A program made the translations under genes and the position numbers. This document shows, piece by piece, positions 19,566 to 21,883 of a DNA stretch of 24,000 bases. Origin of the DNA: an uncultured Actinomycetota bacterium. Its GTDB lineage: Bacteria > Actinomycetota > Actinomycetes > Propionibacteriales > Nocardioidaceae. The stretch lies in NCBI GenBank assembly GCA_963810435.1, contig CAWENL010000001.1, forward strand, positions 1,456,276 to 1,480,275, in the 5' to 3' direction. Below the pieces are notes generated by a model, which did not search any database, was not told where the DNA came from, and worked only from the letters and a program-made list of their open reading frames with translations. The number at the start of each line of letters is the position of its first letter. Position 1 is the first letter of the stretch.

Positions 19566-21257
19566 ATGGCCAAGGACCTGCGATTCGGCGAGGAAGCCCG
19601 GCGCCTGCTGCTCTCGGGTGTCGACCAGCTCGCGGAGGCCGTGAAGACCACCCTGGGCCCGAAGGGCCGCAACGTCATCCTCGAGAAGATCACCGGCACC
19701 CCGGTGGTGACCAACGACGGGGTCACGATCGCGCGCGAGATCCACCTGCGTGACCAGTTCGAGAACATGGGCGCCCAGCTCGTCAAGGAAGCCGCGATCA
19801 AGACCAACGACATCGTCGGCGACGGCACCACCACGGCCACCGTGATCGCCCAGGCGATCGTGCACGAGGGGATGAAGGCGATCGGCGAGGGCGGAAACCC
19901 GGTGCTGGTCAAGCGGGGCGTCGACCTCGCGGTGGGACGGCTCGTCGAGCAGCTGCGCACCATCGCGCACCCGGTGGCCACCCGGGCCGACTACGCGCGG
20001 GTGGCCTCGATCTCGGCCAACAACGACGAGACCGTCGGCCAGGTCCTGGCCGAGGCCCTGCACACCGTGGGCGACGCCGGCATCGTGACCGTCGAGGAGT
20101 CCCCGGCGCACGGCATGAGCGTGGAGTTCGTGGAGGGGTTCGAGTACGACAACGGCTACCTGTCGCCGTACCTCGTGACCCACCCGGCCAGCCTGGAGGC
20201 CATCCTCGACGACCCGTACATCCTGCTGTGCAGCGAGAAGATCTCGAAGGTGCAGCAGCTCATGCCGCTGCTGGACAAGGTGATGCGCGCACCCCGGCCA
20301 CTGGTCGTGATCGCCGAGACCGTCGAGGGGTCGGCACTGAGCATGTTGGTGCACAACCACGTCAACGGGGTGTTCCGCTGCGTGGCCACCAAGGCCCCGG
20401 GCTTCGGTGACCGTCGGCTGCGCAAGCTCGAGGACATCGCCACGATCACCGGCGGAGAGGTCTACAGCAAGCACTCCGGCTTCAGCCTGGAGACGATGAC
20501 CGTGGAGCAGCTGGGTCGCGCCCGTCAGGTGCGGGTCACCGCCGAGCGCACCACGATCATCGACGGGGCGGGGAGTCCCGAGCAGGTGGACTTCCGGCTC
20601 GCCCAGCTCCACGCCGAGCGGGACCGCGCGACGTACGGCATCGACGAGGACGTGCTCACCGAGCGGATCGGCTCGCTGTCCGGCAAGGTCGCGGTCATCA
20701 AGGTCGGGGCGCCGACCAACGCGGAGCTCACCGAGCTCCAGCACCGCGTGGAGGACGCGCTGTCCGCGACGCGGGCGGCCATGGCGGAGGGCATCGTCGC
20801 GGGCGGTGGGGTCGCGCTCATGCACGCGGCCCCGGCGCTGGACCGGCTCGAGGTCCGCAACGACTACGCGATCGGCGTGGAGATCGTGCGCCGGGCGCTC
20901 ACCGAACCGGCGTACCTGATCGCCGCCAACGCCGGTTACCCCGGCACCGAGGTGGTCGAGAAGGTGGCGCAGATGGGGGTGGACGAGGGCTTCGACGCCC
21001 TCGAGGGACGCTACGGCGACATGATCGAGATGGGCATCATCGACCCGCTCCGGGTCTGCCGCTCCGCACTGCAGAACGGCGCGTCGGTGGCCGGCCTGCT
21101 GCTCACCACGAACACGCTGATCGCCGAGGAGCAGACGCCGTGGGGAGGCAGCCGCGCGCTGATGACCGAGTTCGGGGAGCTCGACGAGGGGCTGCACCAA
21201 CCGTCGCCCGATTCCAGCACGCCGCAGTCCATGGGCCTGGGACCGTCGGTCGGGTGA
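19566..21257 (+). CDS. groEL: GroEL-family chaperonin paralog (MimG/PrmG-like), no adjacent groES, 563 aa
   Basis: [13 protein letters not shown]...TLGPKGRNV...GDGTTTATV...; GAGGAG ribosome-binding site 6 nt before ATG 19566. The C-terminus lacks the Gly-Met repeat tail (it ends ...[10 protein letters not shown]). The track's 18651 start is an out-of-context extension. Confidence 0.93.
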
Positions 21258-21883
21258 GCGGACCGGTGCGGCCGGCCGACCCGGACGCCGTCGTACGGCG
21301 GTTGGCCGACGAGGACGCGTCGGCCCTGGTGGGGCTGGTCGAGATCTTCGACGACCTGCAGACCGTGCTGCGCTGCTGCGAGCGGCTGGTCGCCGAGCTG
21401 GCGCTCGAGGACGGGTCCGACGCGGTGCTCGTCGAGTCGATGTGGACCACGGCGCTGTTGAGCTACGCGCGCTGCTTCTCGGCCGAGGGGCCCGCGCCCG
21501 CGCTCACCGAGACGGACCTGAGCACCGCCCAGCCCGAGGGACAGGTTCTCGACTGGCATCGGGCGTTGCTGCGGCTTCGCGCCTTCTACGTCGACGACAC
21601 GGTGAACCCGCGGGAGCGGTTCTCGGTCGGCGTGGTGCAGGACTCGCAGGGCGGTCCCTCCGGGGTGGCCATCACGTCCGTCCGCCAGCCGACGGTGGAC
21701 GACCTGACGGTGCGCCAGACCGGAGCGATCGTCTTCGCGCTCAGCGGACTGGTCGACGAACGCATCCAGAGCCTCCAGCAGAAGGTCTTCGAGTCGGTCC
21801 GGACCCTGCCGCCGGCGGACCTGGAGAGGCTGGAGCGGCTCGACGTCCAGGTCGACGAGAGCGGCAGCCGGGCAGCGGGCTAG
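21254..21883 (+). CDS. Hypothetical protein, about 209 aa, translationally coupled to groEL
   Basis: GTG 21254 overlaps the groEL stop (GTGA). Strong GC3 bias over the whole frame. Predicted soluble and largely helical. No motif I can place. The start could also be GTG 21266. Confidence 0.6.

Follow-up and report, generated by a model that had tools for sequence, protein, structure and literature searches.

Soluble di-iron monooxygenases (SDIMOs) represent sought-after catalysts for the oxidation of alkanes, ketones, ethers and nitrosamines, and their expression outside their hosts is notoriously difficult. Small accessory proteins encoded within SDIMO operons, such as MmoD and DmpK/PHK, bind the hydroxylase, and to our knowledge the SDIMO accessory factors described to date (the MimG/MmoG chaperonins, MmoD, DmpK) have all played a part in expression or regulation. 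A review of SDIMOs lists accessory proteins in group 2 and group 3 operons. Group-5 enzymes, namely propane-2-monooxygenase and acetone monooxygenase of the MimABCD/PrmABCD type, are defined by the gene order alpha subunit, reductase, beta subunit, coupling protein (PMC11825192), and the clusters of Rhodococcus, Mycobacterium and Gordonia are listed with genes for a hydrolase, a DUF59 protein, an alcohol dehydrogenase, GroEL, a regulator, an ABM protein and a catalase (PMC4428276). Here, we describe a locus of this type in a 24,000-nt stretch of contig CAWENL010000001.1, from an uncultured Actinomycetota bacterium of the Nocardioidaceae; this whole stretch is called the window below. Between its chaperonin gene mimG (groEL) and a gene for an Nramp-type metal importer lies an open reading frame (ORF) of 209 codons on the forward strand (21254–21883, hereafter the target), whose product is most likely an optional, dedicated accessory protein of the MimABCD/PrmABCD system. 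Neither the target nor the Nramp gene is listed in the published comparison of the Rhodococcus, Mycobacterium and Gordonia clusters (PMC4428276), no description of the target gene was found in the literature on mimG/prm clusters, and no such protein appears within the Mim cluster of the Actinomycetospora proteome table (PMC7176365). The features of the target to which the text refers are the following:

21254–21883, + strand: target gene, member of the Mim-linked clade of an undescribed family (translation, third-position GC, 877 homologue clusters, AlphaFold2 model with pLDDT 83)
21254–21257, + strand: GTGA shared by the stop of mimG (groEL) and the start of the target (junction likewise tight or overlapping in 47 homologous loci)
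21557–21616, + strand: core of helix 3 and the next loop, H102 ... R109 ... N118-P-R-E121 (alignments, tabulation of 405 sequences)
21707–21724, + strand: T152-V-R-Q-T-G157, a motif invariant in and specific to the clade, where the long C-terminal helix begins (alignment, AlphaFold2 model)

The target is a genuine, selected and operon-coupled protein gene, its probable co-transcription with the operon being assessed from the start/stop overlap, the distance to the following gene, a promoter and terminator scan, and the conservation of tight junctions. Third-position GC was 0.93–0.96 in the target frame versus 0.45–0.75 in the other two. The GTG start at 21254 is embedded in the GGGTGA with which the chaperonin gene ends (groEL stop at 21255–21257). 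On the other side, the GTG of the Nramp gene at 21892 lies 8 nt past the TAG of the target and is preceded by a ribosome-binding site, GGAGCAGGG, and neither promoter-like nor terminator-like sites were found within 20800–23800. In 47 other loci, the first aligned target residue lay -3 to +145 nt from the groEL stop (tblastn), so tight coupling between groEL and the target is the rule. These results bear out the overlap, the 8-nt gap and the strong coding potential reported in an earlier note on this DNA, as well as its view that the ORF is an integral member of the operon and not an island; the peptide strings cited in that note are likewise present in the translation. The alternative start codon GTG at 21140 was rejected: it would create a 118-nt overlap with groEL, and homologues show about 12 residues ahead of a conserved VRRL, matching the start at 21254. 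No Shine-Dalgarno sequence precedes the target GTG, whereas the neighbouring genes have one. This suggests that the target is probably translated by termination-reinitiation from mimG, and that its product may be sub-stoichiometric with respect to MimG.

The invariant final Gly-stop of MimG (GGN TGA) doubles as the source of the overlapping start codon of the target. Upstream of it, in the window at 21090–21254, MimG C-termini carry a nearly invariant tail in place of the usual Gly-Met repeats of GroEL.

The genomic distribution of the target was followed in two samples. For the target-anchored sample, one genome per GTDB species was scanned; 117 loci with a relative were obtained, 80 of them were analysed, and the operon proteins of the window were placed in these 80 by tblastn. 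In 59 of the 80, the target followed mimG, with or without an Nramp gene between them, so that the check proposed in the earlier note, co-occurrence with SDIMO-linked groEL, came out positive. The arrangements were distributed as follows:

50 of 80 loci: target directly after a mim-type groEL, with Nramp next in 36 of the 50
9 of 80 loci: order groEL, Nramp, target, with an Nramp of a different clade (about 63% identity)
8 of 80 loci: target elsewhere, on the mimR/promoter side, within 10 kb of an SDIMO gene
11 of 80 loci: no SDIMO gene within 10 kb, all in Kutzneria, Amycolatopsis and other Pseudonocardiaceae (one of them, L064, with only 3 kb of downstream sequence)
2 of 80 loci: too short for judgement

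The target clade stays attached to mim loci across at least three gene arrangements; in Pseudonocardiaceae, it is found on the mimR/promoter side of the locus or is unlinked. The unlinked copies of Kutzneria and Amycolatopsis are single genes in unrelated neighbourhoods; they keep the motifs LR[EK]HYA..NPR and TVRQTG and are thus orthologues. The MimG-anchored sample came from a metagenome scan with the MimG of the window and comprised about 30 MimG-type loci (69–90% identity). Among the 16 MimG clusters with enough downstream sequence, only 6 contained the target, as confirmed by a hidden Markov model of the family on six-frame ORFs, which marks the target as an optional accessory; most of the 10 clusters that lacked it showed Nramp directly after groEL. 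Nramp is therefore the commoner extension, and both genes occur independently. Searches of plasmids revealed no homologue of the target apart from distant paralogues, and MimG-type chaperonins were absent from them (all matches at most 53% identical).

The target encodes a soluble and acidic product of about 22 kDa (pI 4.4–4.5, net charge -15), with a single His, three Cys (C41, C42, C74), and neither CxxC nor His-rich motifs. A word-indexed search recovered at least 877 homologue clusters at E<=1e-3, all of about 200 amino acids, all annotated as "hypothetical" and, where named, all actinobacterial; an exhaustive profile search at the same threshold gave at least 545 representative clusters at the 50% identity level. 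Alignment of 43 homologues showed about 50 invariant columns, including C41-C42-E43, E61, W64, S70-Y71-x-R73-C74-F75, D88, W101-H102, R109, N118-P-R-E121, T141-S142, Q145-P146, V148-D149 and T152-V-R-Q-T-G157. The AlphaFold2 model built from this alignment (pLDDT 83, pTM 0.73) presented helices at residues 20–49, 57–73, 86–92 (short) and 98–113, a beta-hairpin at 123–142 and a 34-residue helix at 150–183, in other words, a predicted core of four helices with a beta-hairpin placed ahead of the long final helix. The C-terminal half is thus not simply "mixed", as the earlier note had it, the hairpin being followed there by the long helix. Pfam, NCBIfam and PADLOC gave nothing above threshold for the target, the 43 orthologues or two sets of distant members, and no enzyme family was matched in these three databases or in PDB. 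Foldseek comparison of the model with PDB and BFVD returned nothing significant (best E 0.08, TM <0.45, generic helical bundles), and PDB sequence searches with three family profiles and the single sequence P0195 retrieved only a 5-nitrosalicylate dioxygenase fragment (E 1.2) and a dynein coiled coil (E 0.025), both judged spurious. By the tools used, the family is undescribed and has no recognisable structural relative. The earlier note was thus right that the protein matches nothing described and that it is the least understood gene product of the cluster.

Taken together, a real and operon-coupled gene that is optional, tied to mim loci in three arrangements, and translated without a Shine-Dalgarno sequence, with a helical, acidic product devoid of enzyme signatures, points to a non-catalytic, protein-binding factor. 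The target lies among genes with a putative part in maturation (those for the amidohydrolase, DUF59, MimG and Nramp), and this setting, with the coupling to the chaperonin in most genomes, leads us to favour, tentatively and with something less than an even chance, a hydroxylase-directed maturation or gatekeeper factor of the group-5 SDIMO system, analogous in role, not in ancestry, to MmoD/DmpK. A factor of assembly or inhibition comparable to MmoD was also among the candidates of the earlier note. With its gene at the far end of the mim operon, the protein would be produced in translational coupling to MimG, and would act by binding another protein of the Mim system and not by catalysis. Its most likely partner would be the folding or apo form of the MimA/MimC hydroxylase as this leaves MimG, and the bound protein might assist or gate maturation, at the level of metal loading or of premature turnover.

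The closest known proteins, MmoD (orfY of soluble methane monooxygenase) and DmpK/PHK, from groups 2 and 3, are likewise small, soluble, non-catalytic proteins encoded inside a di-iron monooxygenase operon, dispensable for catalysis and assumed to work on the hydroxylase or on its expression. However, the target product is about twice their size, its gene follows the chaperonin gene instead of lying among the hydroxylase genes, and it is present in only part of group 5, at times beside mimR or unlinked. With MimG/MmoG/BmoG, the amidohydrolase and the DUF59 protein, it shares the operon and the presumed purpose of an active hydroxylase; these are conserved beside mimABCD, MimG, the amidohydrolase and DUF59 being described for the Rhodococcus, Mycobacterium and Gordonia clusters (PMC4428276), whereas the target occurs only in some lineages.

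Several observations weigh against a hydroxylase-directed factor. The MimABCD of M. smegmatis is active in E. coli with chaperone co-expression (PMC11825192), so the target would not be generally required, and it is present in only 6 of the 16 MimG clusters. Mycobacterium, Rhodococcus and Gordonia, the genera with characterised Mim/Prm systems, are not represented among the 80 loci. In two Pseudonocardiaceae (L066, L075), the target follows mimR, on the same strand and with a gap of 60–84 nt, and in Kutzneria and some Amycolatopsis it is unlinked; both facts fit a regulator at least as well. Pfam, NCBIfam, PDB sequence and Foldseek searches revealed no likeness in sequence or fold to MmoD, DmpK or any chaperone, and the proposed interaction with a partner is drawn by analogy. 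The residues D34, Y71, R73, H102, R109 and E121, invariant across the wider family, are kept, so that an ancestral biochemical activity may persist. Finally, the net charge of -15 and pI of 4.4–4.5, which make nucleic-acid binding unlikely and so speak for a protein-binding factor, are a weak argument, since all soluble proteins of the operon are acidic.

The copies near mimR bring in a different partner, the GAF/AAA+ activator MimR, of which the target product could be a feedback modulator, either anti-activator or co-activator, the end-of-operon position closing the loop. PspA acting on PspF and the HEPN-fold protein MtlR of the mannitol operon are comparable cases. Besides L066 and L075, the target is convergent with mimR in L083 and lies 3 kb beyond it in L080; in L054 (Arthrobacter), some 7.5 kb separate it from an SDIMO that is more divergent (75% identity in the alpha subunit), and it lies about 5 kb past a mimR-like gene. 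In L048, L057 and L059, it lies upstream of a small ORF and mimA and is divergent from them, with a Ser/Thr kinase gene beyond it. Such a divergent position would suit a regulator, and a single role in regulation would account for the copies within the operon and those on the mimR side alike, but no mimR was found within these three loci, most copies are coupled to mimG and not to mimR, and the unlinked copies show no conserved regulator partner. The rate of evolution also agrees with a modulator: median identity to the window proteins, measured by tblastn across loci, was 96% for the alpha subunit, 87% for GroEL, 85% for the beta subunit, 84% for the amidohydrolase, 82% for the alcohol dehydrogenase, 79% for Nramp, 77% for the reductase and 74% for DUF59, and only 56% for the target, the fastest-evolving of the operon proteins compared and near the rate of the MimR N-terminus (66–73% in the same loci). 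Its optional occurrence and its dispensability for heterologous activity are in accordance with this, and MtlR provides a precedent of an inactive HEPN regulator in a catabolic operon (PMC3710099). Modulation of MimR is thus the main rival reading; it would account for the mimR-side copies and the fast evolution no worse than a maturation factor does, and we consider it possible, if somewhat unlikely.

A separate reading, close to one proposed in the earlier note, is a metallochaperone for Fe(II)/Mn(II) that would hand the metal imported by Nramp to the apo-hydroxylase through carboxylate ligands. The Nramp gene adjoins the target in 45 of the 59 in-operon loci, on either side, the protein is acidic, and new acidic residues have arisen in the Mim clade, E43 and E61 (on helices next to each other) as well as D88 and D149; the clade-specific pair E43/E61 could be a ligand site or a salt bridge. 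This proposal is weakened by the separate occurrence of the two genes, with the target found without Nramp despite ample downstream sequence (for example in L021, L039, L046 and L047) and with at least 8 MimG loci that have Nramp after mimG but lack the target. CxxC and His-rich motifs are lacking, the window protein has one His, and C41, C42 and C74 are family-wide, being present in paralogues unrelated to any metalloenzyme. In a mirror-tree analysis of 13 complete loci, the distance matrix of the target correlated best with that of Nramp (r 0.82, partial 0.57); this was rejected as functional evidence, since physically adjacent genes correlate generally (amidohydrolase and DUF59, for instance, at 0.73) and the signal reflects linkage. 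A metallochaperone is, in our view, distinctly unlikely.

Regarding the importer itself, Nramp/MntH is the last gene in most of the MimG-containing group-5 SDIMO operons sampled (window and L090–L118). At least two Nramp clades, with about 80% and about 50–63% identity to the Nramp of the window, are placed before or after the target, and no literature linking Nramp/MntH to propane or acetone monooxygenase clusters was found.

The earlier note had also suggested a co-chaperone in place of the missing GroES, which would here serve as the lid of MimG. No cpn10 gene adjoins groEL (the alcohol dehydrogenase gene ends at 19530 and groEL starts at 19566) or is present in the cluster, which, along with the translational coupling to mimG, would leave room for such a substitute. 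Nevertheless, the predicted helical bundle with a hairpin, of 209 amino acids and about 22 kDa, is unlike the beta-barrel of about 10 kDa of GroES, there was no Cpn10 match in Pfam even at E<=10 nor any GroES-like match in Foldseek, and the lack of a Shine-Dalgarno sequence argues against 1:1 production. In addition, the target is absent from 10 of the 16 MimG clusters and has moved off mimG in Pseudonocardiaceae, and the C-terminal tail of MimG is the same with or without it. A GroES substitute is hardly credible and close to refuted. The tails themselves, essentially identical in both kinds of cluster, are uninformative on function.

Beyond the Mim-linked clade, the family includes distant paralogues (25–30% identical, 200–230 amino acids), which are unannotated, stand-alone genes in variable neighbourhoods. 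At the position of R109, these show R-[DN]-K-[HL]-x-A-H-S-V-N-P-F-E, in which a polar residue follows the Arg of an R-x5-H motif; in the AlphaFold2 model of a paralogue (pLDDT 90), this motif falls at the end of the third core helix. The Rx4-6H motif of HEPN domains sits at that helix position, and these domains typically have an insert between helices 2 and 3 (PMC3710099). An insert at this place is predicted in the family as well, and the helix order of both AlphaFold2 models fits a four-helix up-down bundle, a comparison of secondary-structure order only. HEPN_AbiU2 (PF18734) was the most recurrent sub-threshold Pfam match (5 of 37 and 3 of 42 members, best E 0.11–0.14 against a cut-off of 26.8 bits), located on the R-x5-H motif; one member gave a sub-threshold HepT-like match, and Foldseek placed seven HepT toxin chains in the top 50 PDB matches of the paralogue model (E 1.9–5, probability <=0.2). 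No significant HEPN match was obtained by Pfam, Foldseek, PADLOC or PDB sequence search, and neither toxin-antitoxin nor restriction-modification partner genes were seen beside paralogues in the neighbourhoods examined. These signals, none significant singly, point weakly in one direction, and we regard HEPN ancestry of the family as roughly evenly balanced.

Tabulation of 405 members separated two classes, one of 128 sequences with R-x5-H and a Mim-type class with R109-x-H111-Y-A-D-P. The consensus of the Mim clade is R-D-H-Y-A-D-P, and the window protein has R109-A-F-Y-V-D-D, with no His at +4 to +7 and with H111 also gone. Residues D34, Y71, R73, C74, F75, H102, R109, N118-P119, E121 and G126 are invariant in both classes, and E43, E61, D88, W101, R120, T141-S142, Q145-P146, D149 and T152-x-R154-Q-T are specific to the Mim class. 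The target may have been recruited, as these data weakly suggest, from a stand-alone actinobacterial HEPN-like family, the Mim clade having replaced the His of R-x5-H and fixed E43, E61, D88, D149, R120, R154 and TVRQTG. Compared with AbiU2 and HepT, the wider family has its R-[DN]-K-x-x-A-H where helix 3 ends, a predicted insert between helices 2 and 3, and a predicted four-helix up-down core about the size of that of AbiU2, whereas the target clade lacks the motif His and carries a beta-hairpin before helix 4. MtlR, the HEPN-fold regulator of the mannitol operon (PMC3710099), resembles the target in being a possibly HEPN-derived protein without a catalytic motif that is fixed inside a catabolic operon; however, its regulatory role is experimentally known, and the likeness comes without a shown sequence relationship.

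Two further readings follow from this ancestry. In the first, the target product would retain a HEPN-type activity directed at RNA or nucleotides, for example processing or stabilising the long mim transcript. The family-wide invariance of H102, R109, R73, Y71 and E121, kept in the Mim clade, the paralogue motif at the Rx4-6H position, the recurrent AbiU2 matches and HepT chains, and the variable contexts of paralogues, including plasmid regions with an integrase and an insertion sequence, are compatible with it. We find it very doubtful all the same, as every HEPN signal is below significance and no sequence match in PDB or PADLOC accompanies it, the Mim clade has lost the canonical His (and the window protein H111 too), and a pI of 4.4 is poor for RNA binding. 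In the second, a HEPN-type domain, normally a ribonuclease of defence or toxin systems, would have been domesticated in Actinomycetota with loss of the catalytic His, and would now be a dedicated protein-binding factor through which the maturation of a di-iron monooxygenase by its chaperonin is linked to expression under MimR control, perhaps by signalling the state of the hydroxylase. This is speculative and, on balance, unlikely; if true, no component of a metalloenzyme biogenesis pathway would have been derived from HEPN before it, and it would be a missing factor for heterologous expression of group-5 SDIMOs.

Distant paralogues were also found on three actinobacterial plasmids, among them plasmid pUSK13_1 of Rhodococcus sp. 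USK13 (L170, 6001–6579) and a Nocardia plasmid (L171, 5863–6531). One plasmid paralogue is unannotated and lies beside a DUF5677 gene, and another is beside a site-specific integrase and an IS1380 transposase; these contexts are variable and mobile-element-like, unlike those of the Mim-linked clade. In addition, a NYN-nuclease/OST-HTH gene is divergent beside an unlinked Kutzneria orthologue (L084, 9145–9906, - strand), and a second one lies about 2 kb from a distant paralogue on an unrelated metagenome contig (L088, 5128–6078, + strand), which may be chance or else hint at an RNA-related setting for the family.

Small accessory proteins of SDIMO operons are a known theme; what is new here is the undescribed family, its distinctive distribution and the previously unremarked Nramp partner. 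Together, the target and Nramp extend the most widespread actinobacterial SDIMO operon in a conserved, though optional, manner. Should the target act on hydroxylase maturation, as we favour, or on MimR, it would offer a handle for better expression and insight into how cells avoid an uncoupled, peroxide-producing enzyme. Whatever its function, it defines an undescribed, confidently modelled protein family of at least 545 clusters at 50% identity.

The remaining genes of the mim locus in the window were assigned as follows:

9750–11591, - strand: MimR-type activator (GAF, AAA+ lid, HTH_8), divergent from the operon (MimR_N and MimR Pfam matches on the L002 and L003 orthologues)
11833–12081, + strand: conserved 82-residue ORF between mimR and mimA (third-position GC 0.88; tblastn matches in 37 loci; called as a gene in L002 and L003)
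12258–13916, + strand: SDIMO hydroxylase alpha subunit, MimA/PrmA (Pfam Phenol_Hydrox; 96% median identity across loci)
14014–15078, + strand: SDIMO reductase, MimB (Fer2, FAD_binding_6, NAD_binding_1)
15103–16305, + strand: SDIMO hydroxylase beta subunit, MimC (Phenol_Hydrox)
16302–16703, + strand: coupling protein, MimD, with GTGA overlap with mimC (76% identity to the MmoB_DmpM gene of L003)
16740–17783, + strand: Amidohydro_2 protein (Pfam)
17780–18508, + strand: DUF59/FeS_assembly_P protein, with ATGA overlap (Pfam)
18505–19530, + strand: Zn-dependent alcohol dehydrogenase, with ATGA overlap (Pfam)
19566–21257, + strand: MimG-type GroEL chaperonin with a conserved non-GGM C-terminal tail (Pfam Cpn60_TCP1; ATG with Shine-Dalgarno sequence)
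21892–23133, + strand: Nramp (MntH-type) divalent metal importer, final gene of the operon (Pfam Nramp, E 1.9e-112)
23225–23719, - strand: ybaK, convergent (Pfam/homology map)

The order alpha, reductase, beta, coupling protein, established by Pfam and, for mimD, by homology, assigns the locus to group 5, and the divergent MimR with the downstream amidohydrolase, DUF59, alcohol dehydrogenase and MimG genes is the same set as in L001–L003. A 131-residue ORF at 16382–16777 (+) was discarded as the coupling protein, being a wrong-frame shadow of pI 11.8 without homologues; the real mimD is 16302–16703. Four-nucleotide start/stop overlaps (GTGA or ATGA) occur at four junctions of the operon: mimC/mimD (16302–16305), amidohydrolase/DUF59 (17780–17783), DUF59/alcohol dehydrogenase (18505–18508) and mimG/target (21254–21257). 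The 82-residue ORF at 11833–12081 has no Pfam match; it showed 55–77% identity in 37 other loci, always directly upstream of mimA and on the same strand. Between 6618 and 9413, long ORFs overlap on both strands, including an 814-residue minus-strand ORF without Pfam match. Finally, the region upstream of the mim locus (111–6229) contains parts of a glycine-betaine-type ABC transporter (BPD_transp_1, OpuAC), a DAO/GCV_T gene resembling dimethylglycine oxidase, and an electron-transfer flavoprotein gene.

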